Shown piece by piece: positions 3,370-21,923 of a stretch of DNA of 26,276 nucleotides. The DNA comes from a virus (taxonomy: Duplodnaviria; Caudoviricetes), in the IMG/VR virus record IMGVR_UViG_3300046779_000442, positions 1-26,276 of that record; one strand, 5' to 3'. Below the pieces are notes generated by a model, which did not search any database, was not told where the DNA came from, and saw only the letters and a list, made by a program, of their open reading frames with translations. The position numbers and the translations under genes were made by a program. Position 1 is the stretch's first letter. Each line of letters opens with the position of its first letter.

Positions 3370-6300
3370 TTATGCAGGTTTTATCTGTTGCGACTGCCAT
3401 GATACTGCATCATATGATCGGTACTTGTAGTTTTTAAGCCTAAAGGTTACATTATCTCCAGAAATAAACTTGTTAGTTCCAGTAAATGCCTTGAATAGAT
3501 CTTGTGGGTCAACACCGTAGTATGTTATATCAGATAGCACTAGGACTCTGTTCCAATTGTATGTTGGAACATTCCAGAAGAACCAATCAAGAGCTACGAT
3601 TCCAGACTGCTTAACCTTAAGCCATGGTCTCTTGGCAACGCTAGAAACTTCCTGTAGGTTTGTAGACTGGTAGAATGAAAGATTGTTGAATAGCAATGGA
3701 CCTACTAGCCTAATACCGCCAACATAGTTCGAAAACTCTAGTGTATTACCAAAGCTAATTCCTAGCATCATCCACTCTTTAACTGTGATGATTGGATCTT
3801 TAACTATCTTTCCATTGACGTAGAATCCAATACCGTTTTCAAAACTTCCAGTCTTAGAATTGATTGCGTAAATCTTTGCCCTCTGACCATTCTTATCTAT
3901 TGGAGTAAGATAGAACCTAATGTTGTTACTTTCCTTGTCCTGTATTTCAAAGATTTGTGTATCTCCATAGGCAAAAAAGTCTTGGTCATACCTCATTGCC
4001 ACCTGCATAGCAATTACCTTGTAATTGTTTGACTTAAATTCATTAATTGGAACATAGAGTCCACGAAGATCTTTTTGAGAAATCTCTCCCCTGACCTCTA
4101 CTCCAGAATATCTATTAAGGTATAGATATGGAGTTGAGCCTTTGTATATGCTGTATGGGTTACTGTTTTTGTAATCATAATATACCCCAGACTTTTTGAA
4201 TGGGTACATTGGAGTTCCAAACCTAGAACCAACTTTTGCAGGGCTTGTCTGACTCATGGCTTGTGCTGCATACTCAAGCTTTTTAATCACAACTGGGCTT
4301 GTGATTATTCCATCTATGTCTACTTCGATATGAGTAACTATTGCAATATCAGCAACGTTAACATTTTTAGGCAGATAGACAATTGCATTATTTACGATCT
4401 CGTACTTCGTTGTCATCCAGTCAGAGCCTGGGAAGATAACGTTTGTTTTTGGTGCTAGCTCTGTATTTGTAAAGAAAGAGAGTGGCTGTGAGACTCCAGC
4501 ATCTAGATACTGGAATGTAATGAATGTCCTTACATAAGATGTTGATGTGTCATAGTTGTAAGTCTTTACAGACTTTTGCATAAGATCTGTGTAGTCGTCA
4601 TAGCCTGTGTATAGATGATTTGAGAGTAGGTCGTAGCTCTTTCCATCGTAGGCTGACTGCAGCTCAGCATATGTCCAAGAGGATGTCGTCTCTTGCTCCA
4701 CAAACTTTGATGGTGCAGGGTAATCTATGTTAACCTGAACAAAGTCTACGTCATAGTATGGCTTGCCCTTGTCGTCATTTACATACTTGGCAAAATATCT
4801 CATTGGGATGTAGTCTTCCCAATAACCATCTACAGCAATATCTAGATATGTAGACTCAAGGTAGTCTTTAAGAATTAGTCCATAACTTGGCGTGTGATCT
4901 ATTGTGTAAGATGTAATAAAGTCATTTGGAGACCCACCGTCTAGCACATAATCCCATAGAGCCGTATTGTAAAGACCTGCATCAATAAATCCTGCTGAAG
5001 AGTACAGGTCAAAAACATTCTCGTAGTCTAGTGGAAAGCCTCTTTCGCCAAACAAAGACTCTATCTTCTTGAAGTTTCTTTGATTGCAAAAACCTATTGT
5101 ATAAATATTTCCAGCAAATGTTTTTCCAAAAGTCTTATCTCCACCAACATATAGAGAAATTTGAGACTTGTTTCCAAAGAATGATAGCAAGTTGCCACCA
5201 TAGTACTCTGTCATTTTTGCTATGTTAAAACCAACTGTAAACTGATCTCCAACAATAGTTCCATCTGAGCTATCAGTACCCCAGGCTTCATAGACCACTG
5301 TTTCTGTTGCTCCGTACTTTAGCTTATACTCAATGTTGTTGCTATTTATAGATATTGTAAAAGTATTTAGCGTTACCTGGTCTTCAAACAGCATTAGAAC
5401 TTGTTCTGAGGTTGGCAAAGCATTCTTTGTTTTAAAGATTCCATACACTGCAGTTGTGTCGTCAGTGAGCAAATTAATGTTATTGAATAGCAAGTACCCT
5501 GGCTGTATGGTGTTGCCAGGTTTAAAGGTTATAAACGAATCATCTTCATTTTGTGCCTGCTTGAGTTCTGAATACCACTCTTTATCAGTCTTATTACCTT
5601 GGAAGATAATTTCTGGAAGAGAGTACTCTGGAGCTGAAATTGCACGATTATTTGTTGACAGGTTGCTAACAATCGCATCGCTAAAGCTTGACATAGATGG
5701 GTAGTTTTGGTTTTTTGAGTATTGAGAGAATCCATAGTCAACAACAACCGATGTTCCAGCATATGCCTTTTCGATGTTTTCTGGATACTTTACTCCCTGA
5801 CCATATACCCATCGTCTTTTTGCAACAACAGATGGCACTTCATATGAATAAATTGCAACTGAGTCTATTTCAATTGGAGTGACATCATCATATGCGTAAA
5901 ATCCTAACCACTCCTGATCTTTACCAGCAACAACAGGGTCTGGGAAGCTTATGTTATCTTCTAGAGTTAGAGCAATGACCTGTTCTCCATTTATAAGAAG
6001 GCTGGCTGCAGATGAAGAATATCTTATATCAATCAGCATTGGTCTGCCCCATTCTCCGACATAGTGGCTGCCAACCTGGGTTCCAATAGATAGCTTCAAG
6101 AATGGACCATCTACATACAATCCGTCAGTTGAAGTTACTGGACCAAATATTCTTTTTGGAACTACCGCATCTGAGATTACTCTTAGCCAAAACTCTGCAG
6201 TAAACTGTTTGTATTTTCCAGAATTATTTAGGAACCCCAGGCTTGGGACAATCAGTGATGGATTGTCGTTATTAGGATAAATAATTGTTACGCTAGATGC

Positions 6301-7059
6301 ACCATATGCCATTGGAATGCCAGAGTTTTTAGCCATTAACGTATTTGTTCCAGACAGGTAATATCCATCTTTATCTTGCTCTCCATAAGCAGCAGCAAGT
6401 ACGCCATAGTTGTATGGACTGCTAATCGGAATAGTTTCTGGTAGAAGTTCTGGGGACTGCCCTAAAGATGTTGCGTTAAACTCTTCAGATCTTTGTCCAA
6501 AGGTTATTCCGTTAACCATAAACTCATTTGCAGAGTCTCCTCCAGAATATGAAAACTCTAGCAAAAGATTAAAGTCTACATCTTCATCTGGTATTTTAAA
6601 TGTTTCAGATAGCAAAGCCCATTTGTTTGCTTCTGGGATATCAAAAAATTCTTTTACTTCTATAACCTGATCAGACGTTGGGTCAACGTATGTGTATCCC
6701 AAATAAAAGCCCAGGGCATACTCTGTCTTTGATTGCACATATGAGCTGATAGAGAATGTGCCAATTTCTGAATTTAGCGATTGCTTTGATATAGCTGGTC
6801 CAACCATCTTGGTCAAGCCAGTTTGACCCTGTGGGATAACATCTGAGCTTACAAGATTTACTATTGATGGAAGTGGCTTCTTAGATGGGGTTACTTCAGT
6901 TGCTGTACCGTCAGTTATTTCCCAGATATTAGAGTCAGATAGGTCTCTGTCATTTTCTGATATTAGAGAAATGTAGTCTGCTGATTCATCGAGCGACCAC
7001 ATTGCGATGGGGTGCTCTGCAAATATTTTTTCTGCATAGAGGTTGGAAGGACTAGACAT
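3370..7059 (-). CDS. Large virion structural protein (1229 aa; beta-rich, possible LamG/concanavalin-like modules; baseplate/minor-tail type)
   Basis: Long uninterrupted ORF. The N-terminus (YAEKIFAEHPIAMWSLDE) and the segment FTAEFWLR...LLINGEQV...IDSVAIY resemble LamG-like folds. Structural-gene context; function is inferred. Confidence 0.6.
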   Translation of the reverse strand: MSSPSNLYAEKIFAEHPIAMWSLDESADYISLISENDRDLSDSNIWEITDGTATEVTPSKKPLPSIVNLVSSDVIPQGQTGLTKMVGPAISKQSLNSEIGTFSISSYVQSKTEYALGFYLGYTYVDPTSDQVIEVKEFFDIPEANKWALLSETFKIPDEDVDFNLLLEFSYSGGDSANEFMVNGITFGQRSEEFNATSLGQSPELLPETIPISSPYNYGVLAAAYGEQDKDGYYLSGTNTLMAKNSGIPMAYGASSVTIIYPNNDNPSLIVPSLGFLNNSGKYKQFTAEFWLRVISDAVVPKRIFGPVTSTDGLYVDGPFLKLSIGTQVGSHYVGEWGRPMLIDIRYSSSAASLLINGEQVIALTLEDNISFPDPVVAGKDQEWLGFYAYDDVTPIEIDSVAIYSYEVPSVVAKRRWVYGQGVKYPENIEKAYAGTSVVVDYGFSQYSKNQNYPSMSSFSDAIVSNLSTNNRAISAPEYSLPEIIFQGNKTDKEWYSELKQAQNEDDSFITFKPGNTIQPGYLLFNNINLLTDDTTAVYGIFKTKNALPTSEQVLMLFEDQVTLNTFTISINSNNIEYKLKYGATETVVYEAWGTDSSDGTIVGDQFTVGFNIAKMTEYYGGNLLSFFGNKSQISLYVGGDKTFGKTFAGNIYTIGFCNQRNFKKIESLFGERGFPLDYENVFDLYSSAGFIDAGLYNTALWDYVLDGGSPNDFITSYTIDHTPSYGLILKDYLESTYLDIAVDGYWEDYIPMRYFAKYVNDDKGKPYYDVDFVQVNIDYPAPSKFVEQETTSSWTYAELQSAYDGKSYDLLSNHLYTGYDDYTDLMQKSVKTYNYDTSTSYVRTFITFQYLDAGVSQPLSFFTNTELAPKTNVIFPGSDWMTTKYEIVNNAIVYLPKNVNVADIAIVTHIEVDIDGIITSPVVIKKLEYAAQAMSQTSPAKVGSRFGTPMYPFKKSGVYYDYKNSNPYSIYKGSTPYLYLNRYSGVEVRGEISQKDLRGLYVPINEFKSNNYKVIAMQVAMRYDQDFFAYGDTQIFEIQDKESNNIRFYLTPIDKNGQRAKIYAINSKTGSFENGIGFYVNGKIVKDPIITVKEWMMLGISFGNTLEFSNYVGGIRLVGPLLFNNLSFYQSTNLQEVSSVAKRPWLKVKQSGIVALDWFFWNVPTYNWNRVLVLSDITYYGVDPQDLFKAFTGTNKFISGDNVTFRLKNYKYRSYDAVSWQSQQIKPA

Positions 7060-7098: not shown

Positions 7099-7689
7099 TT
7101 AGTCAATGAGGAACCAGAATCCTGGGGACATATACTTTGTACCACTAATAATTTTAGTAGACTCGTGGACAAATGGCGGTACTGATGGAAATATGACTAT
7201 GCTTCCTGCTTTTGGCTTAATCCTAATACCCTGGTTTGGAAAGTTAAGCTCTCCGCCCTCATAACTATCGTTTAAATATAGTACAGAAGATATGTGCTCT
7301 GTGGTTGGCTCTGGTGGAGAATCTGTATGCGGTCCCATAAAAGCATCTACAAAATACTTGCTAATGCTTATTGGTGCTTGCCTTCCCATCTCAATTCCCA
7401 GTTTTGCGCAGTAGTCTTTTGCCGTCAGGTCTAGTGCATCTTTTAAAAGATTGTATACGGTTCTAGTGATACTATCAGACTGGTCATAGCTTTCTTGGTT
7501 TGTCATTTTCCTTGCTCCAAACAGAAACTCAGAATTATCGCTTGCATACCATGGGTGCCAAGATGATATCAAAGAGCTACCTGAAAGCTTGTGATCCATT
7601 TCTTCTATAGCCTGTACGACACTCTCTGGGCTATATAAAATATTCTCATAGTAGAAGATTTTGTCTGCAAAAACTTTAGGCTCTAGCAT
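7099..7689 (-). CDS. 2OG-Fe(II) oxygenase, prolyl-4-hydroxylase-like (Lys type)
   Basis: HTD...VLYLNDSYEGGELNF...KPKAGSIVIFPS...VH...SGTKY. Confidence 0.9.
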   Translation of the reverse strand: MLEPKVFADKIFYYENILYSPESVVQAIEEMDHKLSGSSLISSWHPWYASDNSEFLFGARKMTNQESYDQSDSITRTVYNLLKDALDLTAKDYCAKLGIEMGRQAPISISKYFVDAFMGPHTDSPPEPTTEHISSVLYLNDSYEGGELNFPNQGIRIKPKAGSIVIFPSVPPFVHESTKIISGTKYMSPGFWFLID

Positions 7690-8344
7690 CTGATTCTAGG
7701 TTCCACTGTTCTTTTTGAGCATCTTGCTTTGGCTGCTCTGCCATCTTAAGTCTTGCTAACTCTTCCAGGAAACCTTCTGGATACTCAATGTCAGCGTAGT
7801 CCCATGACAATAGCATTGTGTAACGCTCTCCAGATGTTACTTCTGTAACAGCATGAACGTTATCAATTCCAACGTCAAAAACAATAACGGTTCCAGCCTT
7901 TGGTGCAATAGAGATTCCGTGATCTCTAAAGGTTAGGTTTCCACCCTCATAATTATCATTTAAATAGATAATAGTGACTAGCTTGTTGTCCTGCCACGCA
8001 TTTGGTGTTCCATCTAGCTCAGCATTGTCTGCGTGATCTCCTGCGTAAGCACCTGGAAGCCACTTGTGTGCACTAACTGTAAGATTACGAACAGGTCTTC
8101 CCATTACCTCAGATGCTAAATTGCCTAGTGATTCTCGAAGCTTGTGGAAAAAGTGTGGGTCAAATAGCTCTACATTTAGTTGGTTCTTTGGTCCGAATGG
8201 ATCCATTACCCTGGCATTATAAAAACATGTTTGCTGCCACAGCGAGTCTCCAGCATCGTAATATGCTACTAGCTTCTGGCATTCTTCTTCAGAAAGATAG
8301 CCTGAAAACTCTACAATATCGTGTTTGTGAATAATCTTTTCCAT
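7676..8344 (-). CDS. 2OG-Fe(II) oxygenase, prolyl-4-hydroxylase-like (Arg type)
   Basis: HAD...IIYLNDNYEGGNLTF...PKAGTVIVF...VHAVTEVTSGERY. Confidence 0.9.
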   Translation of the reverse strand: MEKIIHKHDIVEFSGYLSEEECQKLVAYYDAGDSLWQQTCFYNARVMDPFGPKNQLNVELFDPHFFHKLRESLGNLASEVMGRPVRNLTVSAHKWLPGAYAGDHADNAELDGTPNAWQDNKLVTIIYLNDNYEGGNLTFRDHGISIAPKAGTVIVFDVGIDNVHAVTEVTSGERYTMLLSWDYADIEYPEGFLEELARLKMAEQPKQDAQKEQWNLESDARA

Positions 8345-8349
8345 AATAA

Positions 8350-9078
8350 TCAGGCAAACTTGTTGCCCTTAGCCCACTCCTCTTTTTGTCTAGCTTGTTC
8401 TTCTCTAACCTTGCGAGTTTCCTCTTCCCACCAAGTCTTCTTTTCATCAGAGTATTCTGCATCAGCGAAGTCCCAGAATGATACCATGGTATATCTAGTT
8501 CCAGAAGTTATTTCTTTAACTCCATGAATATTCTCTACACCACCTGGGAAAACATAATAAGAATAAGCATTTGGCTTAAACTCAATGTCGTGATCTGGGA
8601 AGTATAGCTGACCACCATCATAGTCTTCGTTCAAGTATAAAATACCTACATACTTGTTAATTTCGAAGGCATTTGGCTCTCCATGGTTATCTGAATTATC
8701 TGAGTGCGGATTTGCAAAGCCACCTACATTCCACTTTTGAGCATGTGAAGTATTAGGCTTGACTGGTCTATCAAAAATTTCACCTACGTGTTCTTGAAAA
8801 GACTTCTTTAGTTCTTCAAAAAATAGACCTGGCAATCCGTAATCAGCTAGCAGCGGATCGTTTGGCAATAGTCCCATTCCTTCTGAGCCATAAAACGCAA
8901 TGTCTCCCCAGTTAGCTGCCTTAGCCTCAAAGTAGTTGATCATGTTTTTGGCTGCTTCTGGATCAATGAAGTTTGGAACCTCTACAATACGATTGTCTTT
9001 AATTCCAAGAACACTATTTTCAATTGGAGTGTCTTTGTAGTAAATAAATGATGACTTGTCTACAGTCTTAGTAAACAT
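8350..9078 (-). CDS. 2OG-Fe(II) oxygenase, prolyl-4-hydroxylase-like (Arg type)
   Basis: HSD...ILYLNEDYDGGQLYF...IHGVKEITSGTRY. Confidence 0.9.
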   Translation of the reverse strand: MFTKTVDKSSFIYYKDTPIENSVLGIKDNRIVEVPNFIDPEAAKNMINYFEAKAANWGDIAFYGSEGMGLLPNDPLLADYGLPGLFFEELKKSFQEHVGEIFDRPVKPNTSHAQKWNVGGFANPHSDNSDNHGEPNAFEINKYVGILYLNEDYDGGQLYFPDHDIEFKPNAYSYYVFPGGVENIHGVKEITSGTRYTMVSFWDFADAEYSDEKKTWWEEETRKVREEQARQKEEWAKGNKFA

Positions 9079-9082
9079 GAGC

Positions 9083-9736
9083 TTAACCTACCTTATTGTG
9101 TTTAGTGATTGTCCAGAAGAATGGACAGGTGTATCTAATTCCAGAGTCTAGTACTGTTACACCATGAACGTAATTCATGTCCCCTGGAAAAAAGTACACA
9201 GCACCCTTCTTTGGCTTAAATTGTATTCCTTGATTTGGAAAGTATAGTTCGCCACCTTCGTAATCATCGTTCAAGTAAATAATTGTTGCTAGGTCGTACC
9301 ACGGAAAACTATTTGGTTTTCCTGCATCGTCACCCAAGTGCAACTCTTTATCAGCATGTGGCATCTGCAATTGACCTGGAAGCCATCTTACAAGTGCTGG
9401 GGAGGTTGGGTCAGCCTCTACATTAAAGAATGTTTCAATTTCTGGCTTTAGTCGAATAACAATCTTTTGTATTAGCTCTACGATTGATGGATCGGCTTTT
9501 AGTAGTGTTGGCGTGGTAGCCACTCTGTCTTTCCAGTATGTTGACTCATAAATTATGGTACCTTCGTCATTATACTGGGTTTCAGTAAAGTCCCACTGAT
9601 CATTACTTCTAATAAACTGGCTTAGAGTTTCTACCTCTTCATCAGTTAAAAAAGGCTCAATGCCACCTATCATCTCTGGTCCTTTACCAAAGAATCCTGA
9701 TGGCGTAATTGAGACTGGGTGTCTGTGTTCTATCAT
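9083..9736 (-). CDS. 2OG-Fe(II) oxygenase, prolyl-4-hydroxylase-like (Arg type)
   Basis: HAD...IIYLNDDYEGGELYF...KPKKGAVYFFPG...VHGVTVLDSGIRY. Confidence 0.9.
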   Translation of the reverse strand: MIEHRHPVSITPSGFFGKGPEMIGGIEPFLTDEEVETLSQFIRSNDQWDFTETQYNDEGTIIYESTYWKDRVATTPTLLKADPSIVELIQKIVIRLKPEIETFFNVEADPTSPALVRWLPGQLQMPHADKELHLGDDAGKPNSFPWYDLATIIYLNDDYEGGELYFPNQGIQFKPKKGAVYFFPGDMNYVHGVTVLDSGIRYTCPFFWTITKHNKVG

Positions 9737-9742
9737 GTATTA

Positions 9743-9751
9743 ATTATACAC
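9743..9751 (-). promoter_or_regulatory. -10 box, leaderless-type start for the four-oxygenase unit 9736-7099
   Basis: GTGTATAAT-taatac-ATG (6-nt spacer). Confidence 0.7.
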
Positions 9752-10479
9752 TATTCATACTTGCGACGCTCCCACACGTCTTTCTGATATACCCCACCAT
9801 TTGGTACACGGTATTTCTCAGAATTTTCCATATTCTTTTTACGAAGAGTTTCCTGATCTGTGACTAGCTCTACTTCTGAGGTCCAGCTCTCTCTTTTAAA
9901 TGGGATTATTTGTGCATATGGAGTTCCTGCTGGAAGAATGCCAGTCCATCCTGATGCCACAAAGAATGGCATTGTTCCTGGCAAGTTTACCTTATCGTTA
10001 TCAATAATTCCTGCTGTAGTTAAGAACGGAAGCTCAAACCTATTCAGTGGCTGAGTATAGATAGCACTGTACCCTTCTGGCAACTCTACTGCCCAATCTG
10101 ACCACCAGGCAAAGTGTACTTCTTCATAGCCATGTGGAACTGGAAATTGTGGCATAGGGGATCTTGGCTGGACAAAATGAACATACTTAGGATCATCAAC
10201 CTTTACCGAAAGAACACCAGAATCAGAGATGTAGAACTCAATATCGCATGGTGTCTTGTAGACATATCCGCTGCCCATAATATCATAGATTGCTGGGCAG
10301 GCTTTCCAAGTAGGAACTTTGCCACCATCTGGACCAATCCAATGTTCTCCGTCTGGTCTTTGTGCAAACCTGTCTGCATTTCTATACCAGTCTGGAATAG
10401 TCTTTAAAATTGGTGTTGGTCTGGATACGCTATCTTCTGTTAGCCAGGATCTGTTTGAAACAAACTTTATAGACTGCAT
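9751..10479 (-). CDS. DUF6065-like protein (dUTPase-like beta fold suspected)
   Basis: TWKACPAIYD...GYVYKTPCDIEF...PEGYSAIYTQPLNR...GIIDND...LPAGTPYAQIIPFKR; the AGTPxAxIIP motif is shared with the neighbouring gene. Family recognised from memory. Confidence 0.6.
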   Translation of the reverse strand: MQSIKFVSNRSWLTEDSVSRPTPILKTIPDWYRNADRFAQRPDGEHWIGPDGGKVPTWKACPAIYDIMGSGYVYKTPCDIEFYISDSGVLSVKVDDPKYVHFVQPRSPMPQFPVPHGYEEVHFAWWSDWAVELPEGYSAIYTQPLNRFELPFLTTAGIIDNDKVNLPGTMPFFVASGWTGILPAGTPYAQIIPFKRESWTSEVELVTDQETLRKKNMENSEKYRVPNGGVYQKDVWERRKYE

Positions 10480-11186
10480 TACTGCTCCTTAGTAGTTTTT
10501 AAAATAATTTTCTTTGCTTCGTGCTTACCAACAGTAGCACCAAGATGATCTTTTGCGTCTCTATAGAAGTGTGTCCACTCACCACGAGAATTCATTTCTT
10601 GTGCAGCATCTCCACGTGCAGACATATACCTGTTATAGCTTTCATTATAAATTTCTGATGATGGTCTGATTACCATCTCAAAAGACTGAATGTCGATTAG
10701 CGATATTGGTATAATTGCAGCAATTGGTGTTCCTGCAGGAATAACAATTTCTTCATTAGCCTTTGTTACCATCCATGCTACTGGAAGCTCTCCTGGCAAA
10801 ACAGATGTGCTTGTTAGAGTTGTCATACACTGAGCACCGTCAATAAACTGATTTGGAACAGGCATTGTCAACAACGTTACGTTTTCATCTGACTTAAATG
10901 TTAGCCCAGTACTAAAGCTAACTGTTCTGTTACCACGATATGTATGCACATAACTGTTTCCAGAAAGTACCTTTATGTGGTCAGCAGTTGAATCATTAAC
11001 GCCATCCCAAATAAATCTAATATCTTCATTAAATGAGATTCCCCAGCCAAGTCGATTTGCTAAAGAAATAGGAAAGCAATGATACGCATGTCTATCAAAG
11101 GTTATGTCCATCCAGTCACGCTTCATTCCAATTTGATCTAGAACTGCTGCGTTACCGTTGTTTTGGTATACGTTAATGATTGACAT
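10479..11186 (-). CDS. DUF6065-like protein
   Basis: RDWMD...HAYHCFPISLANRLGWGI...PVPNQFIDG...IPAGTPIAAIIPI; TAATG stop/start overlaps at both ends. Confidence 0.7.
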   Translation of the reverse strand: MSIINVYQNNGNAAVLDQIGMKRDWMDITFDRHAYHCFPISLANRLGWGISFNEDIRFIWDGVNDSTADHIKVLSGNSYVHTYRGNRTVSFSTGLTFKSDENVTLLTMPVPNQFIDGAQCMTTLTSTSVLPGELPVAWMVTKANEEIVIPAGTPIAAIIPISLIDIQSFEMVIRPSSEIYNESYNRYMSARGDAAQEMNSRGEWTHFYRDAKDHLGATVGKHEAKKIILKTTKEQ

Positions 11187-11881
11187 TAGTCACCAGTTTC
11201 TTGGTAGAAGCCTTCTCTGTGGTACTTTGCTGAGTAATCAAGCATAGTAACAATGGAGTATTTGGTTCCTGAGTGTACTGGCATTGCTCTGTGAGGATAC
11301 ATAAAGTTAGAAGGGAAAAGATACAGGTCTCCTGCCTTTGGCTTAATGTTTAGATTCTGCAATCTAAAGAAAAGCTCTCCACCCTCATAATCGTCGTTTG
11401 GATATGATACTGCTGATAGGATACAGTTGTATGAGTAGCCATTGTCGTGGTGCTCCTGGAAGTGCTGACCTGGACCGTACTTAATAAAGTTCATGGCTTC
11501 CCAATAACGAAGCTCTCCGATGTTGTATGTCTTGCAGTAGTGCCTAACAGCTTGAAGTTGTCTAAAGTATACCTCGTCCCAAAGTTTCTGCAACTTAAGT
11601 GATGCCTCTGACTGGTCTTCAGCAATATCTGTCTTTTTAAACTTAAAGTCTTGGCAGTCACGGTACTCTGGCATCCTCATGCCGTACCCTACCTTTGCTT
11701 CACTATAGGTATACCCATTAGTTGGATCGTTTAGAACACCCTCTAGTCTTGAGATAATCTCCATATTTTTTGGAAGAACGTCACGGTATACAAGAATACC
11801 GTTTCCAAAATCTTCTACAGAAGACCATGTTTGCTCTTCAATTTCGTAATACTTTTGAATTCGTTCGTGAATGTTTTCCAT
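11186..11881 (-). CDS. 2OG-Fe(II) oxygenase, prolyl-4-hydroxylase-like (Lys type)
   Basis: KYGPGQHFQEHHD...YPNDDYEGGELFF...KPKAGDLYLFPSNFMYPHRAMPVHSGTKY. Confidence 0.9.
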   Translation of the reverse strand: MENIHERIQKYYEIEEQTWSSVEDFGNGILVYRDVLPKNMEIISRLEGVLNDPTNGYTYSEAKVGYGMRMPEYRDCQDFKFKKTDIAEDQSEASLKLQKLWDEVYFRQLQAVRHYCKTYNIGELRYWEAMNFIKYGPGQHFQEHHDNGYSYNCILSAVSYPNDDYEGGELFFRLQNLNIKPKAGDLYLFPSNFMYPHRAMPVHSGTKYSIVTMLDYSAKYHREGFYQETGD

Positions 11882-11890
11882 TGCTATTCC

Positions 11891-12622
11891 TTAATATGAT
11901 AGTTCGTTGTCTGATTCTCGGTAATTGTAGTTTCTCAAGTTACCTCTTGAGTTATAGTCTGTCATTACTACAATGGCATACTTTGTGCCAGAGATCATGT
12001 CTTGTGATGCATGTTCGTACACGTATGTTGATGGGAACACGATAACGTCACCAGCCTGTGGCTTGATAGTTAGATCGAATCTTGGGAAATAGATTTCTCC
12101 ACCCTCATAGTCATCATTAATATATGCTACTACAGATACCGTGGTAACATAAGCTGGACCATGGTCTGCATGAATCTTAAAGTGCGTTCCTGGTCCATCA
12201 TACTTGACAAAGTTAAATGCCTCAAAGTACTGGATACCAACGCCCCAAGATGTTGAGTAATGGTTTGTACAGTTTTTAATCTTCTGAAAAGCGTTTTCAT
12301 GCATTTCATACAGTGCAGAATTCTGCTCATTAACTGGTCCCAGAGATCCTCTACGAATCTTAAAGTCTAGACAGTTTCTAGCCGAAGATACGACTTCGTC
12401 AGATTCTGTAACCATAGCACCAGCCCAGCTATACTGAGTTTGACCATTTAGGGTATTCTCTAGAACAGAAATATAGTTTTCGCCATCGCTCTTTGGTATA
12501 GCGTTGCGGTAGATATTGATACCAAGTGCAGGATTGATAACAGTAATACCGTTGCCAATCTCTTGATCTGGCTTCCTATTCTTGTCTGTTTCGCTTCTAT
12601 CTAATTCAAACCAATTTGTCAT
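11891..12622 (-). CDS. 2OG-Fe(II) oxygenase, prolyl-4-hydroxylase-like (Lys type)
   Basis: KYDGPGTHFKIHAD...YINDDYEGGEIYF...KPQAGDVIVFPSTYVYEH...SGTKY. Confidence 0.9.
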   Translation of the reverse strand: MTNWFELDRSETDKNRKPDQEIGNGITVINPALGINIYRNAIPKSDGENYISVLENTLNGQTQYSWAGAMVTESDEVVSSARNCLDFKIRRGSLGPVNEQNSALYEMHENAFQKIKNCTNHYSTSWGVGIQYFEAFNFVKYDGPGTHFKIHADHGPAYVTTVSVVAYINDDYEGGEIYFPRFDLTIKPQAGDVIVFPSTYVYEHASQDMISGTKYAIVVMTDYNSRGNLRNYNYRESDNELSY

Positions 12623-12628
12623 GCATCA

Positions 12629-12637
12629 ATTATAACA
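12629..12637 (-). promoter_or_regulatory. Extended -10 box, leaderless-type start for unit 12622-9751
   Basis: TGTTATAAT-tgatgc-ATG. The 13-mer TTATGTTATAATT is repeated exactly at 15270-15258. Confidence 0.7.
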
Positions 12638-12644
12638 TAACCAA

Positions 12645-13412
12645 TTAGCATGGGCAACCCTTGGTGCATTCTGGGCAGAATGATGGACCAAAGCTTGGGA
12701 AGAATGGTGGGAAGTAAGGTGGGAAGTATGGGAAAAACGGTGGGAAGTATGGAAAAAACGGTGGGAAGTAAGGTCCAAAGCTTGGGAAGAATGGGAAGAA
12801 CGGTGGGAAAAATGGAGCCTGTGTTGTAACGCTATTGGAATTTGCAGAATAGACACCATTACCGTTAGCATTTTCAGCACGGACCTGATATGTTTGAGCA
12901 GTATTAGCCTCTTGAGTAACAACAACTGAAGTGGATGTTGTTGTTCCAGTCTTACCGTCAGAGGATGTCCATCGGTACTGGCTAATAGCCTTTCCACCAT
13001 TGCTAGGAATGTTCCACGATACAGTATCCTGGTTTACTCCTGCTGTAGCGGTTGGGGCAGAAATGGTTGCTGGTACTGTTGTGGCAGTTACAGACGCTGA
13101 AGCTGTTGAAGCTGCTGAGGTACCAAATGCGTTTGTAGCAGTAACAGTAAAAGTATAAGAGGTGTTGCTAGACAATCCACCTACAACAATTGGAGATGAT
13201 GATCCAGTTGCTGTGTGGTTTCCAGAAGATGTTACAGTAAAGGATGTTGCAGCACCAGAGCCTGCTGGCAGAGAAAATGCTACAGAAACAGCACCATCAT
13301 TAAAGGCACGGTTAGTTCCAACATCAGTTCCAACAACGTTAATTGGTGCTAGTGGTGGAATAAAGTCATTCTGTGCTAGTGACTTTCTACCTGCTCTTTT
13401 ATTCTGTGCCAT
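12645..13412 (-). CDS. Two-FN3-domain virion protein with a C-terminal Pro/Phe/Tyr repeat tail and a terminal CxxCxxxCxC
   Basis: FN3 signatures VGGLSSNTSYTFTVTATNAFGTS and VSWNIPSNGGKAISQY...YQVRAENANGNG; tail PFFPPFFPFFPSFGPYFPP...CPECTKGCPC; AGGAAGG upstream of the ATG. Confidence 0.85.
   Translation of the reverse strand: MAQNKRAGRKSLAQNDFIPPLAPINVVGTDVGTNRAFNDGAVSVAFSLPAGSGAATSFTVTSSGNHTATGSSSPIVVGGLSSNTSYTFTVTATNAFGTSAASTASASVTATTVPATISAPTATAGVNQDTVSWNIPSNGGKAISQYRWTSSDGKTGTTTSTSVVVTQEANTAQTYQVRAENANGNGVYSANSNSVTTQAPFFPPFFPFFPSFGPYFPPFFPYFPPFFPYFPPYFPPFFPSFGPSFCPECTKGCPC
12678..12815 (-). repeat. Coding tandem repeat for a 46-aa tract (18 Pro, 19 Phe, 4 Tyr, 3 Ser, 2 Gly)
   Basis: 21-nt period GGTGGGAAGTATGG(G/A)AAAAAC at 12718 and 12739, partial at 12760; CCAAAGCTTGGGAAGAATGG at 12688 and 12775 (plus-strand reading). 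Confidence 0.95.
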
Positions 13413-13425
13413 TTTTCATACCTTC

Positions 13426-15216
13426 CTATGCGGTCAAGTCTCCGTAAACAACCCAAGTGTTTGCAGCCCTCTTAAATAGGGTAGCTGAAGACCACTGAGT
13501 ACGCAGCTTAAGACCTGGAGTAGCGTTTACCGTAACTCCACCTGCTCCTGCAATTGTAACTTGACCAGATCCTGTCTGTAGGATATCTAGAGATGTTCCA
13601 ACTGGGAAATTAAGTGTTCCATCAGCTGGGATTGTTACTGTTGTTGCAGAGCTAGAGCTAACTTCAATTAGAGAGTCTCTCTCAGTCAATGCACCAAGAG
13701 TATAAGATGCTGTCTTTGCAATAATTGGTGTTAGAGATGGTACACCCTGCTTAGTTTGAGATCCATCAGAGAACACAACACCAGAAACCTCAACATTGTT
13801 AACTGCGATATCGTCAAGTGATCCTTGACCAAAGTTAACCGTAGTAGTTGGCTCGTCTGTCACACCCTTGAAAAGCTTCCACTTTCCAGCAGAAGCATCA
13901 CGGACGATGCCTGAGTGTTGATATGTACCGTCATTAAAGTTTCCAACAATACCGATGTCAACTAGGTTTCCAGTGTTTCCCTCACCAATATAAATTAGAG
14001 GGTCTGAAACTACCAGATCCTGTGCAGATACTGTGGTAGTTGTTCCTGTTACAGTTAGGTTACCATCTACAATTAGGTCTGTTTCTACAGTTACATCTCC
14101 AGTAAAGGTTGCACCAGAAAGGCTTGCTTTTGCATCTAGTGCAGTTTGCGTAGCTGAAGAGATTGGCTTATCAGCGTCAGATGTATTATCTACGTTGCCA
14201 AGACCTACGTGTGTCTTAGTTACACCAGACACAGTTCCTGTAAATGTTGGATTAGCTATTGGTGCCTTAGCATCTAGCTGGGTCTGAACAGCTGATGTAA
14301 CCCCATCGAGGTAGGCTATCTCAGTTGCAGACACATTGCCGATGGTTGTTGTAGATGGCAAAGACACGTTTCCAGTAAGGCTTGCGTTATTAATAGGGGC
14401 ATATGTTGTTGCTGCTGTTGCGGATGCAAGCTTTGCGTCTAGCTGAGTCTGGATGCTTCCAGTAACACCATTTAGGGCTAGAATTTCAGCAGCTGAGACA
14501 TCTCCAATATTTGTAGTTGTTGGTAGAACTACGTTACCAGAGAATGTTGGGCTAGCCACATCTGCCTTAGATGTTTCGTGGGTAGTTACTGTGTTGTATG
14601 CATATGTAGCGTCTGACTCAATGTCATTAAGCTGAGTTTGGATTGCTGAAGTTACGCCATCCAGGTATGAAATCTCAGTTCCAGTTACGCTTCCGATACT
14701 AGTTGTTGATGGCAAAACGATATTACCAGTAAATTCACTATCTGCCAAGATACCTGTAGATACATCAGATATAGCAATTGACAATGCTTCTGATGTAATC
14801 AGGTGTGACAACTCTGACCAGTTCTTGTCACCCATACCGATCTTTATCTGATCGTTGGTTGAGTTATATGCAACAGTTCCCACTGGAATGTCTGTAGTAT
14901 ATGCAGTCCACTCTGAATCTGTCTTTGACAGCAAACCAGCTTTTGCAGCTAGAGAGTTTGTTACAGTTGTTGCAAAGTTTTCGTTGTCCCCCAGAGCAGC
15001 AGCAAGTTCATTTAGGGTATCTAGTGCTCCTGGAGCACCTGCGACAATGGCATCTAGGTTGGTGAAGTATGGCAAAGCAGTCCAAGCACTTGAGCCATCA
15101 CCAATCTTAAACTTGCTGGTGTCTGTCTCAAATCCAATTTCTCCAGCTGCAAGCACTGGGTTAGCAGTAGTCCACTGGGAGGCTGTTCCTCTTCGTTGCT
15201 GCATTCTTGTTGCCAT
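13426..15216 (-). CDS. Tail-fibre-like protein with an Mtd/hyaluronidase-type N-terminal domain, internal repeats and a C-terminal 'GDLxA' domain
   Basis: N-terminus QQRRGTASQWTTANPVLAAGEIGFETDTSKFKIGDG; fibre motifs APGALDTLNELAAAL and VGLGNVDNTSDADKP; three repeats of (F/L)(T/S)GNxxLPxTTxIGxVxxxEIxxLxGVTxxxQTQL; AGGAG RBS. Confidence 0.85.
   Translation of the reverse strand: MATRMQQRRGTASQWTTANPVLAAGEIGFETDTSKFKIGDGSSAWTALPYFTNLDAIVAGAPGALDTLNELAAALGDNENFATTVTNSLAAKAGLLSKTDSEWTAYTTDIPVGTVAYNSTNDQIKIGMGDKNWSELSHLITSEALSIAISDVSTGILADSEFTGNIVLPSTTSIGSVTGTEISYLDGVTSAIQTQLNDIESDATYAYNTVTTHETSKADVASPTFSGNVVLPTTTNIGDVSAAEILALNGVTGSIQTQLDAKLASATAATTYAPINNASLTGNVSLPSTTTIGNVSATEIAYLDGVTSAVQTQLDAKAPIANPTFTGTVSGVTKTHVGLGNVDNTSDADKPISSATQTALDAKASLSGATFTGDVTVETDLIVDGNLTVTGTTTTVSAQDLVVSDPLIYIGEGNTGNLVDIGIVGNFNDGTYQHSGIVRDASAGKWKLFKGVTDEPTTTVNFGQGSLDDIAVNNVEVSGVVFSDGSQTKQGVPSLTPIIAKTASYTLGALTERDSLIEVSSSSATTVTIPADGTLNFPVGTSLDILQTGSGQVTIAGAGGVTVNATPGLKLRTQWSSATLFKRAANTWVVYGDLTA
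14266..14739 (-). repeat. Three diverged ~40-aa coding repeats in the fibre shaft
   Basis: FTGNIVLPSTTSIGSVTGTEISYLDGVTSAIQTQL / FSGNVVLPTTTNIGDVSAAEILALNGVTGSIQTQL / LTGNVSLPSTTTIGNVSATEIAYLDGVTSAVQTQL. Confidence 0.9.
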
Positions 15217-19475: not shown

Positions 19476-20057
19476 TTACTTTATCCATCCAACTATTGCA
19501 TATCTAGTACCAGACCTAACTGGTATAACTGAGTGATTATACGTATAGGCTGAAGGAAACACCAAAAGGTCGTTAGCCTTTGGCTTATACGTTATATCAA
19601 ATCTAGAAAAGTTAATTTCCCCACCATGATAATCATCATTCATGTAATACACAAAAGAAATTCTTCTAGGATAGTTTGGATGATCGTCTATATGGTTAAT
19701 AAACTTTTGACCTTCCCCATACTTCAAAATATTAAATGGCTCGAAGTCTGAATAGAATATGCTGTAATTAGCCATGTAATCCTCTATGGAGGGTTTTACG
19801 ATGGTGTTGATGATATTTATCATGTTTTGATAGAAAACGTCTCTAGGGGTCTCTGAGAGCACGTCTGGGAGCTTTGATGGTATCACTATCGTGTCAGTAT
19901 CTCTGGCTGACTTATTTGTACCGCCAGACACTGATGCCTCAGACCAGGAAATTGCTTCGTATTCAACTGCCTCTTCGATCATTGATGGAAGATTCTTGTA
20001 ATCGCCATAAACTTGAGAATAGACTACAATGCCTGGCGCAATCTCGTTACCTATCAC
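19476..20057 (-). CDS. 2OG-Fe(II) oxygenase, prolyl-4-hydroxylase-like (Arg type)
   Basis: KYGEGQKFINHID...YYMNDDYHGGEINF...KPKANDLLVFPSAYTYNHSVIPVRSGTRY. GTG 20057, just after the upstream stop, is preferred over the track start at 20093. Confidence 0.9.
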   Translation of the reverse strand: MIGNEIAPGIVVYSQVYGDYKNLPSMIEEAVEYEAISWSEASVSGGTNKSARDTDTIVIPSKLPDVLSETPRDVFYQNMINIINTIVKPSIEDYMANYSIFYSDFEPFNILKYGEGQKFINHIDDHPNYPRRISFVYYMNDDYHGGEINFSRFDITYKPKANDLLVFPSAYTYNHSVIPVRSGTRYAIVGWIK

Positions 20058-20058
20058 G

Positions 20059-20301
20059 CTACCACTTTCCGAGTGGGCATTCTGCCTTTTCAAGTTGTGT
20101 CTTTAAAGCCATAAAGCATCCACACTTTTTACACTGATGCGTAAGCTTTACTAGCTCTGGGCACGACTTGCAAATATCCATTCGTTTTGTGGATATTTCT
20201 AATGACACTTTCTTTTCTGCTGGGTTGATCATATCCCATGGTCTAGTGTCGCCAAGGTTTTTTTTCCACTCTTGCCAAGGGTTGAGCTTTTCTTCAGACA
20301 T
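20059..20301 (-). CDS. Small Cys-rich protein (DUF6171-like)
   Basis: RMDICKSCPEL...QCKKCGCFMALKT...ECPLGKW (6 Cys). Confidence 0.75.
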   Translation of the reverse strand: MSEEKLNPWQEWKKNLGDTRPWDMINPAEKKVSLEISTKRMDICKSCPELVKLTHQCKKCGCFMALKTQLEKAECPLGKW

Positions 20302-20304
20302 CCA

Positions 20305-20511
20305 TTACTCCGATGGTGCTATAAACTCAGTGCCATCAAAAGTCCATCCGAACTTGACACCATCAGTATCGCTTGCATCGACAACTGTTGCACCTGACGA
20401 AAATCCTGCAACTAGTCTTTCATAGTTTGGCGCACTGCTTGGAATATAGAGTGTCCCAAAAACATCTCCGTCTACAACGAATGCATAAGTTTTATCTAAA
20501 TTTTCTGACAT
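20305..20511 (-). CDS. Small fibre-associated hypothetical protein (68 aa)
   Basis: YAFVVDGDV...VKFGWTFDGTEFIAP resembles small genes that follow phage fibre genes; TGGTATAAT 6 nt before the ATG. Confidence 0.7.
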   Translation of the reverse strand: MSENLDKTYAFVVDGDVFGTLYIPSSAPNYERLVAGFSSGATVVDASDTDGVKFGWTFDGTEFIAPSE

Positions 20512-20531
20512 GAGTTAATTATACCACATGA

Positions 20532-21269
20532 CTAACATACCCAACCAGATCCAGTACAGAAGCACTCTCCTGGATATGGCTCAGGCTGACCCAAGCAAGT
20601 ATTTACTGGAGTAAACGTAGGTGGAGTAAATGTAGGTGGAGTAAATGTAGGTGGCACAGGCGTGAATGACGGTGGTGCTGGAGGACATGTGTAAATTCCA
20701 CTTGATGGTGCTGGGTATCCAGTTGTAGAACACGCAACACCAGCAATGCCATTAGTGCAATACGACTCATTAGATGTTGCTGGGTAGATAAAGGTGTCTC
20801 CAGTATTTTCTAGGTACCTGCAGTACCAGGTTGTTGCACATGCTGGTGGAATAGATGGATTTGGAACCCCAGGAGTGGTTTGACAAACAGTTCTATAGTC
20901 GTCACAAACTACTCCACTAACATCTGTTGAGCTAGTAAATTCTGATGAAACAACGCCATTTTCATCGGTTGTCTTACAGTAGTAAGTCGTTGGGAAATTA
21001 GGTGGAAAGTTTGGCGGTGTTGGAACCCAGTAATATACAGTAATATCTACTGTTGTACCTGGATCAACTACGGTACCTGCTGCAATGCTTTGTGTTGCAA
21101 CAGTGTTATTGTTTTCAACAGTTGCTCCAGAAGTTGTTGTGTTTACAGACCCTACCGTGAGTCCTGCTGCTGTAATTGCTGATTGTGCCTGTGAGCTGCC
21201 AAGACCAGTAAGCAGTGGAACTACTGCACTACCCCTTGTCGCTGCGTAAAACCCAAGTACACCCAGCAT
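20532..21269 (-). CDS. PASTA-domain protein with two Cys-rich repeats, Pro-rich repeats and a Cys-rich C-terminus
   Basis: VVPLLTGLGSSQAQSAITAAGLTVG...TVATQSIAAGTVVDPGTTVDITVY fits the PASTA pattern; PPNFPPNFP; TTYYC.../TTWYC... repeats; PPTFT x3; C-terminus GECFCTGSGWVC. Confidence 0.8.
   Translation of the reverse strand: MLGVLGFYAATRGSAVVPLLTGLGSSQAQSAITAAGLTVGSVNTTTSGATVENNNTVATQSIAAGTVVDPGTTVDITVYYWVPTPPNFPPNFPTTYYCKTTDENGVVSSEFTSSTDVSGVVCDDYRTVCQTTPGVPNPSIPPACATTWYCRYLENTGDTFIYPATSNESYCTNGIAGVACSTTGYPAPSSGIYTCPPAPPSFTPVPPTFTPPTFTPPTFTPVNTCLGQPEPYPGECFCTGSGWVC
20608..20652 (-). repeat. 3 x 15-nt coding tandem repeat (PPTFT)
   Basis: GGAGTAAA(C/T)GTAGGT at 20608, 20623 and 20638 (plus-strand reading). 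Confidence 0.95.
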
Positions 21270-21272
21270 CGC

Positions 21273-21923
21273 TTATGCCTTTAGGTCACCTATGAGAAGC
21301 CACTCGTTGTTTGCAATCTTTGTCAGCATAACACCGCTGTAAGTTGCTCCAATTTTAAGCTGATTGTTTTTTGAACGAATTGTGACGTTTGTTCCTGCAA
21401 CAAAAGTGACATCACCAGTGTTTGCTCTCACAATTTCAATTCTGGCTCCGATTGGAAGCTCGTTAGCATCATTTGAGTCTTGAACAACCGTAATAGAAAT
21501 ATTTGATACAGTGTTCACCACTACAAGCTTATCAATGTCAGCCTTTGAGAGTGTAAAGCTTGATGTTGATGCCGAAATTGTTGGGGTGTTGATACTCTTC
21601 CATCCACCAGCAACATATGCCTGAAGCTGGTTTAGTGGTTCGTTAAGAGATGTTTGTCTAACAAAGCAAACAGTTCCCTCAGCTGGTGATGGGATTGCTG
21701 CGTCTCTGTCTGTAGTAGTCTGAAAATTGTTAAATCCATCTTGAAAGACTACAGTGTTTTCAAATGTTGCTGCTGTTACAAACTTTGTGCCAGCTGTTCC
21801 ACGGAACTCGTGATCTCCAGTCCAGTTGTAATCTGCATCTGTACTTGCAATACCAGCAATTGGGTGCCAGGTACCGCCATTGTAAATATAGCCAACCTTG
21901 CTTGTATTAGAAATTGTTGCCAT
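21273..21923 (-). CDS. Short fibre/adaptor protein with a C-terminal 'GDLxA' domain
   Basis: FQTTTDRDAAIPSPAEGTVCFV; C-terminus TLSKADIDKLVVV...LPIGARIEI...GDVTFVAG...LTKIANNEWLLIGDLKA is paralogous to the end of 13426-15216. Confidence 0.8.
   Translation of the reverse strand: MATISNTSKVGYIYNGGTWHPIAGIASTDADYNWTGDHEFRGTAGTKFVTAATFENTVVFQDGFNNFQTTTDRDAAIPSPAEGTVCFVRQTSLNEPLNQLQAYVAGGWKSINTPTISASTSSFTLSKADIDKLVVVNTVSNISITVVQDSNDANELPIGARIEIVRANTGDVTFVAGTNVTIRSKNNQLKIGATYSGVMLTKIANNEWLLIGDLKA

Follow-up and report, generated by a model that had tools for sequence, protein, structure and literature searches.

A candidate phage protein-hydroxylation system: prolyl hydroxylase-like enzymes encoded behind a protein with a Pro/Phe/Tyr tail

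Virus-encoded prolyl 4-hydroxylases (P4Hs) have a precedent in the algal virus PBCV-1, whose 2-oxoglutarate (2OG)- and Fe(II)-dependent enzyme (vCPH, PDB 5c5t) hydroxylates Pro-Ala-Pro-Lys repeats (PMC3634087). Oxygenase arrays are also common in aquatic phages, and are usually called auxiliary metabolic or DNA-repair genes, with the substrate left unnamed (PMC9146016; PMC2938197). For example, the gp41–gp54 array of Syn9 combines ten dioxygenases with a dUTPase-fold gene with a conserved cysteine, and secondary-metabolite synthesis was proposed for it (Iyer et al., 2010; PMC2938197). The same paper predicts hydroxylation of the co-encoded protein in bacterial operons that join a beta-hydroxylase and a sulfotransferase to a collagen-like or tail-collar substrate (PMC2938197). 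Here we analyze the 26,276-base phage record IMGVR_UViG_3300046779_000442 in its entirety (hereafter, the window). In it, eight genes for six oxygenases (Ox1–Ox6) and two further proteins (D1 and D2) follow a gene (12645..13412) coding for an FN3-type carrier protein with a Pro/Phe/Tyr tail. We regard it as probable, from comparisons of sequences and models, that the locus encodes a phage protein-hydroxylation system, in which a fibre-region protein would undergo collagen/extensin-like hydroxylation and Ox1 and Ox2 would split its prolines by context.

The locus shares with vCPH a viral origin and a P4H-like enzyme type, and the Ox2 model matches the vCPH fold (Z 16.0, root-mean-square deviation (rmsd) 2.5, 159 residues aligned). 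However, vCPH is a single enzyme of an algal virus, whereas the phage battery stands by one carrier gene with an aromatic repeat and includes paralogues that track sub-motifs. The Syn9 array also lies directly behind fibre genes, and its gp43 matches the D2 profile, if weakly (38 bits), but the proteins before the array are Gly-rich, not Pro/Phe-rich, and Syn9 has halogenases. In this cultured cyanophage (L200:8856-23145, gp36–gp54), the small Gly-rich proteins separate the fibre genes from the halogenase/D2-like/oxygenase array. The predicted bacterial operons likewise co-encode a low-complexity substrate, and some relatives of our locus add sulfotransferase-, methyltransferase- and Asp/Asn-hydroxylase-like genes; the operons differ in their enzyme families and Gly-rich substrates and are themselves predictions only. 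With the hydroxylation of collagen and extensin (C-P4H, P3H1 and Chlamydomonas P4H) the locus has in common the HxD…H motif, a Lys at +10 in Ox1 and Ox2, and Ox3 and Ox4 profiles that match P3H1 best, over about 70 residues. Yet it has no Gly-X-Y or Ser-Pro repeat, an identity of at most about 20%, a Tyr-to-Phe change and a bacterial cytoplasm as its setting.

Gene clusters for ribosomally synthesized and post-translationally modified peptides (RiPPs) combine a repetitive core of short length with a set of neighbouring tailoring enzymes. A first-pass annotation of the window had called the locus RiPP-like, a label that we do not retain: a folded FN3 carrier stands in place of a leader, tract length is variable, and neither a protease, a transporter nor a released peptide is evident. 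The cluster representatives scanned contained no protease, with several of their genes lacking a family. Our literature search, which had most subscription journals outside its scope, found no published description of the carrier, of DUF6065 or, among the papers listed, of a Pro-Pro-Phe-Phe phage repeat.

Tail type and enzyme cassette

The carrier, our candidate substrate, is a 255-aa protein encoded, like all genes in the window, on the minus strand (Pfam fn3). It has 1511 relatives at E ≤ 0.001 and no match in 50,697 annotated phage records. It had been annotated as an FN3-FN3 protein; the first domain exceeds the Pfam cut-off (residues 39–104, 32.8 bits), but the second reaches only a sub-threshold, PKD-like match. 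Residues 200–245 (12678..12815) form a 46-aa tract (F19, P18, Y4, S3, G2) with the 41 Pro, Phe and Tyr residues counted earlier, arranged as five Pro-Pro dyads, three [FY]P[FY] sites and five sites where an aromatic residue and a proline precede a non-proline. The richest windows of the same length in other proteins of the record hold 22 such residues (a PASTA protein) and then 16. The tract codons vary synonymously (Pro CCA13/CCG3/CCT2, Phe TTC13/TTT6), and the repeat is therefore no plain DNA microsatellite; this variation and the recurrence of the tract in many contigs rule out an artefact or microsatellite origin. The tract/cassette region was also present in contigs from public sequencing runs. 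The Pro-Pro-Phe-Phe motif is found in the cyclic peptides antamanide and cyclolinopeptide A too, presumably by coincidence.

Directly after the tract, the sequence reads as a Cys cap, CPECTKGCPC (12648..12677), which relatives replace with a different Cys-rich end, a short end or a Hint-like domain. Among 111 closed carriers, 27 have a long C-terminal extension after the repeat that was called Hint by its length, and both long-extension carriers tested (L014:6101-7480 and L016:10001-11209) gave weak Pfam Hint matches. Small WxxDG-type and DUF6171-like genes lie behind 23/27 Cys-capped tails versus 1/82 others (e.g., L008, L022 and L051), in a classification that is approximate and misses the window's own short cap.

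Behind the carrier, after a gap of 22 nt (Ox1 starts at 12622), the genes follow in the order already noted in the first-pass annotation: Ox1, Ox2, D1, D2, Ox3, Ox4, Ox5 and Ox6. The expected co-occurrence of Pro/Phe tails and oxygenase arrays is borne out across relatives. Three scans recovered 167 carrier open reading frames with 117 distinct tails, of which 109 were kept and eight were dropped because the DNA behind them was too short; the type of ten tails was assigned by eye. The tails were classed as Pro-Pro (PPFF, PPYF, FFAPP), Gly/Ser single-Pro (FSPFG) and, in one case, proline-free Tyr/Asn. Ox2 lies within eight genes of 87/90 Pro-Pro tails versus 0/19 other tails, and 18 of these 19 are accompanied by OxT, an oxygenase of a different family.

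Searches anchored on the enzymes or on the tract agree with this partition. An upstream tract was present at 68/80 viral and 63/80 metagenome loci anchored on Ox2, the remaining 12 and 17 being too short; the two sets are not independent because they overlap and consist of nearest relatives. Control searches returned no tract on the opposite strand (0/47) or downstream (0/62). An array in relatives lacking any Pro-rich tail, which the annotation had named as evidence against its proposal, was sought; wherever an Ox2 locus included 2.5 kb or more of upstream DNA, a Pro/aromatic tract was present. Conversely, none of 79 OxT-anchored loci bearing the FN3 carrier had Ox1 or Ox2. Anchoring on the tract gave 121 loci; once 17 duplicates and 39 loci of insufficient length had been set aside, 65 were informative, and Ox1 or Ox2 was at most 6 kb away in 58/65. 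Among the seven that remain, Ox2 lies at another place on the contig in four, and three are fragments of 8–26%.

The partition extends to whole records. All eight records with single-Pro tails (seven at least 90% complete; two apparently near-copies) lack orthologues of Ox2, Ox3, Ox4 and D2 throughout. Their Ox2 scores are at most 116 bits versus at least 405 bits for orthologues; each contains three to eight further oxygenase matches, together with two genes distantly related to the D2 family. OxT was found in none of five Pro-Pro records. Furthermore, where the tract is borne by another carrier protein (L105, L124, L128, L133, L136 and L145), the same cassette still stands behind it, and the cassette is found beside two different portal/capsid modules.

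Ox1 and lone prolines between aromatic residues

The proposal that different enzymes treat different prolines fits the distribution of Ox1 (OxA; 11891..12622). In a discovery set of 87 Pro-Pro loci with Ox2, the motif [FY]P[FY] occurs in 76/78 tails with Ox1 and 0/9 without it. This rule was framed after the data had been seen, which counts against it, and it was therefore tested on separate loci. From 283 Ox2 loci, 161 were removed because no tract was in view (61), because they already belonged to the discovery set (41), or because they were cut (25), duplicated (20) or too short (14), leaving a hold-out of 122. Here, the motif is present in 94/96 tails with Ox1 and 0/26 without; the looser [FY]P[^P] gives 96/96 and 5/26. 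Shuffled versions of the Ox1-less tracts miss the motif in only 13% of cases. Among 240 family-by-motif tests on 60 loci, the pairing of Ox1 with [FY]P[FY] ranked first (53/0/0/7).

The match also recurs in phylogenetic and whole-record comparisons. A FastTree phylogeny of 175 carrier (FN3) heads contains eight supported independent pairs, all in agreement (p = 0.008). Ox1 is missing throughout all 14 records whose tails are free of the motif; four of these records are complete. One further record seemed to be an exception, with Ox1 and a motif-free tail, but the contig breaks within that tail, and the rest of it, at the other end of the contig, holds two FPY sites. Near-identical sisters differ in the same manner: L003, L005 and L673 lack Ox1 and L151 and L356 have it, tracking the motif. 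Because Ox1 is almost confined to tails in which a single proline is flanked by aromatic residues, the enzymes likely target the repeat.

Enzyme features and predicted chemistry

All six oxygenases exceed the PF13640 cut-off and have an intact HxD…H motif followed, at +10, by Lys or Arg. Numbering of the collagen enzyme, including Lys511, follows PMC9676403. The Lys equivalent to Lys511 of C-P4H, ten residues past the distal His, is conserved in Ox1 (27/27; H151-D153-H204, K214 in the window) and in Ox2 (49/49; OxB, 11186..11881; H144-D146-H197, K207), and is also present in Ox6 (7099..7689), an accessory oxygenase of the Lys type. Arg takes its place in Ox3 (OxC, 9083..9736; R201), Ox4 (OxD, 8350..9078; R195) and Ox5 (7676..8344), a paralogue of Ox4 (38% identical). 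The best solved-structure match of the Ox3 and Ox4 profiles is prolyl 3-hydroxylase 1 (P3H1; E 3.5e-7 and 7.8e-12), a weak one for Ox3, with only about 70 C-terminal residues aligned. Thus, the earlier description of six P4H-like oxygenases suits Ox1 and Ox2 better than Ox3–Ox5, and the Arg in the latter and the differences at the Tyr position discussed below rule out that all six are collagen-type P4Hs. A P4H-like character of the first gene unit and a more P3H-like one of the second are a lead rather than an assignment.

Ox2, the core oxygenase and the only one of the six to be modeled (predicted local distance difference test (pLDDT) 90; Foldseek and VIA fold comparison), has a predicted peptide prolyl 4-hydroxylase fold. 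Its top six VIA matches are all prolyl hydroxylases (Z 15.3–18.4). The best are PHD, Pseudomonas putida P4H, algal P4H and vCPH (Z 16.0–18.4), and the AlkB/TET types reach at most 13.3. Its sequence matches in annotated phage records are distant (at most 37% identical) and lie in other gene contexts. The predicted target of Ox2 is Pro-Pro and that of Ox1 the lone proline of [FY]-P-[FY]. Ox1 and Ox2 are the best-supported enzymes of the cassette, and there is a good chance that they modify the tail; that all six oxygenases do so is doubtful.

The tail could instead be a substrate with a different chemistry or product, its Phe/Tyr residues rather than its prolines being hydroxylated, or its repeat being released as a RiPP-like peptide. 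We consider this improbable. In its favor, the feature that all tail types share is a wealth of aromatic residues and not proline, an oxygenase stands behind proline-free and nearly proline-free tails, the Pro-contacting Tyr is replaced, and the Hint-type extensions described above could be read in the same direction. On the other hand, the cassette genes scanned contain no protease or leader, tracts of 26–197 aa do not resemble a defined core peptide, prolyl hydroxylases are the closest fold matches of Ox2, and the proline-poor tails use a different family, the PF13759-like OxT. The resemblance of OxT, the alternative oxygenase of single-Pro tails, to PF13759 was seen in language-model features; sequence searches found no solved-structure relative. 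Matches in NCBIfam stayed below threshold. OxT follows the proline-free Tyr/Asn/Phe tail (L187:10001 onward) and the nearly proline-free one (L438), and may therefore act on aromatic or Asn residues.

The first-pass annotation listed D1 and D2 as two DUF6065-like genes. D1 (10479..11186; invariant Cys37) does match DUF6065 above the cut-off (PF19541, 100.6 bits). D2 (9751..10479; invariant Cys61) has no Pfam match; it matches phrog_7084 instead, and an hhalign comparison ties it to D1 (87.8%, E 3.3e-6). In VIA, the D2 model has dUTPases as all of its top 11 matches (Z 7.8–9.5, 7–18% identity), the best with an rmsd of 3.2 over 126 aligned residues. No dUTPase Pfam match was found for D1 or D2. 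Of the motifs typical of dUTPases, compared by eye, G-I-I-D-x-D and a Gln are kept in D2, not in D1. The dUTPase-like fold raises the alternative of a modified base in the phage genome, made by these proteins together with the oxygenases. Other observations in its favor are weak, sub-threshold Tet_JBP matches of Ox3 and Ox5, a ribonucleotide reductase gene that is often behind the cassette, D2 relatives near thymidylate synthase or ribonucleotide reductase, and a DNA-repair role proposed for cyanophage oxygenases (PMC9146016). However, prolyl hydroxylases score far above the TET and AlkB folds in the Ox2 comparison, ribonucleotide reductase is found with both tail types, and a DNA pathway would not switch with the tail of a fibre protein. 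DNA modification is thus a very remote prospect.

Gene context and the case for tail hydroxylation

Each four-gene unit was previously assigned its own −10 box. A TATAAT does precede Ox1 and Ox3, in each case 6 nt before the ATG. The site of Ox1 (12629..12657) is TG-extended and of a putative leaderless type; that of Ox3 (9737..9752) is absent from the list of the two-hexamer scan. In relatives, the TG-extended motif precedes Ox1 in 47/99 and Ox3 in 52/104 cases versus 1/104 for D1 and 3/112 for D2. Yet the cement, 68-aa, 124-aa and 1229-aa genes have similar TATAAT-type motifs in front of them as well, and the overall count of promoter-like sites in the window is at chance level (25 observed vs. 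20.3 ± 4.2 expected). TG-extended −10 boxes lie a few bases before the ATG at several starts in the window (e.g., 18682, 20511 and 3357), and such proximity suggests leaderless transcripts.

Cassette content varies. In 38 cassettes closed by a backbone gene, where Ox2 is present by definition, Ox1 occurs in 33, D1, D2 and Ox3 in 35 each and Ox4 in 32, for one to eight oxygenases per cassette. Genes inserted beside some tails resemble sulfotransferases (L003:5504-6217), Asp/Asn beta-hydroxylases (L046:8853-10777) and methyltransferases (L425:6747-7959), hinting at further decoration. The claim that all eight genes are dedicated to the tail does not survive this variation, the lack of Ox5 and Ox6 in the nearest relative and the existence of stand-alone D2 genes in bacteria. 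Homologues of D2 (L201–L237) lie on Pseudohongiellaceae and other gammaproteobacterial contigs, sometimes in tandem and often near DUF6152 genes; these contigs have no oxygenase arrays or tracts and the neighbours are unconserved. Dedication of D2 to the tail is, as a result, unsupported.

Several observations weigh against tail hydroxylation by the cassette. Ox3–Ox6 are dispensable in some close relatives, and the stand-alone D2 homologues are 57–68% identical to the phage protein; more distant D2 relatives, in haloviruses and S-RIM4, adjoin nucleotide genes. The Pro-contacting Tyr of characterised P4Hs, three residues before the first His, is Phe in Ox1 and Ox2, a conservative change, and Gln, Ala, Ala and Met in Ox3, Ox4, Ox5 and Ox6, respectively. 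Ox1 is present without [FY]P[FY] in four tails, and the 240 tests yielded no clean motif for Ox3 or Ox4. The hold-out was deliberately enriched in Pro-Pro-only tails, with two rows corrected on inspection. Furthermore, the Ox1-motif match is concordant and not significant on the Ox2 tree (two supported pairs, six changes), and an IQ-TREE subsample of 80 rows gave five pairs, none opposite (p = 0.06). The coarse contrast of tail type and cassette has two to three supported independent pairs and is not significant (p 0.25–1) on any of the trees used (FN3, g161 and the 1229-aa protein; quick tree). Up to 15 oxygenase matches occur genome-wide in these phages, including those with single-Pro tails. 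As the tail adjoins the cassette, block recombination could carry both together.

Joint transfer is central to an alternative in which the cassette is a hitch-hiking island, its oxygenases having substrates among host proteins or metabolites (e.g., EF-Tu-like targets, oxygen or iron stress) and only traveling with the tail gene in the same recombining slot. Consistent with it are the separate promoter-like sites before Ox1 and Ox3, the many oxygenases elsewhere in these genomes, the stand-alone bacterial D2, and the presence of the EF-Tu hydroxylase complex (4iw3) among the top Ox2 fold matches. The slot also hosts ribonucleotide reductase, SDR, glutathione peroxidase and methyltransferase-like genes. 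Hitch-hiking does not predict that Ox1 would track a three-residue motif among near-identical sisters, nor that displaced tracts would retain Ox2 elsewhere on the contig. We judge it unlikely for the cassette as a whole, although it may still apply to Ox3–Ox6 and D1/D2.

Under the favoured reading of tail hydroxylation, iron/2OG enzymes would act on the Pro/Phe/Tyr repeat inside the infected cell and the modified carrier would then probably be attached to the fibre tip. Ox2 would 4-hydroxylate a proline in Pro-Pro dyads, and its paralogue Ox1 the lone prolines between aromatic residues. In collagen, 3-hydroxyproline occurs next to 4-hydroxyproline. By analogy, the Arg-type, P3H-like Ox3–Ox5 might add a second hydroxyl (e.g., 3-hydroxyproline beside 4-hydroxyproline) or act on aromatics, and D1 and D2, with their dUTPase fold and invariant Cys, may be helpers or decorating enzymes. 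The predicted product is a stiff, partly polar aromatic rod presenting a swappable end, either a Cys knob or a Hint domain. Gene order makes it rather likely that the carrier is located in the virion; the previously proposed receptor-binding tip, for which the basis is gene position only, is not upheld.

The window also encodes portal, cement, fibre and baseplate-like proteins. The fibre protein (Mtd_N; 13426..15216) is a candidate docking partner of the carrier. Over its last 104 aa it is similar to the end of the product of gene 21273-21923, with which it has a C-terminal domain in common (32% over 105 aa, E 9e-12); sequence searches found no solved-structure relative for the domain. The latter gene belongs to a second, parallel module (19476-21923) that the first-pass annotation overlooked. 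It contains a PASTA protein (20532..21269; Pfam), a second candidate substrate with PPNF/PPTFT repeats and a Cys-rich end. Behind it (19476..20511) are a 68-aa gene with its own TG-TATAAT, an 80-aa DUF6171-like gene and a seventh oxygenase, Ox7 (19476-20093). Both modules share a layout of fibre-end domain, repeat protein, promoter-like site and helpers or oxygenase. The conserved 1229-aa protein beside the portal (3370-7059) has no Pfam, PHROG or NCBIfam match.

Among the matches listed, three of 24 sequencing runs hold at least half of the window's words, and these are freshwater metagenomes; no RNA run appeared among those listed. The gene whiB, which marks actinobacterial hosts (PMC6802176), is present in all five large related records; this points to an actinobacterial host for the window phage as well. 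More speculatively, and against our own expectation, freshwater actinophages might equip their fibre tips with a chemically programmed polymer of aromatic residues and proline. It would have one hydroxylase per proline context (Ox2 for Pro-Pro, Ox1 for lone prolines and Ox3–Ox5 for a second hydroxylation) and further groups added by dUTPase-fold, sulfo- or methyltransferase enzymes. Repeat and enzymes would co-evolve as a code tuning host binding, and the cyanophage arrays behind fibre genes would be of the same kind.

The locus offers a named candidate substrate and an enzyme-by-enzyme prediction that can be checked with two synthetic peptides. If the prediction is true, small single-domain prolyl hydroxylases with new sequence preferences would become available. 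Furthermore, phages of abundant lake bacteria would hydroxylate their own structural proteins in the style of collagen, and many 'auxiliary metabolic' oxygenases would be virion-tailoring enzymes.

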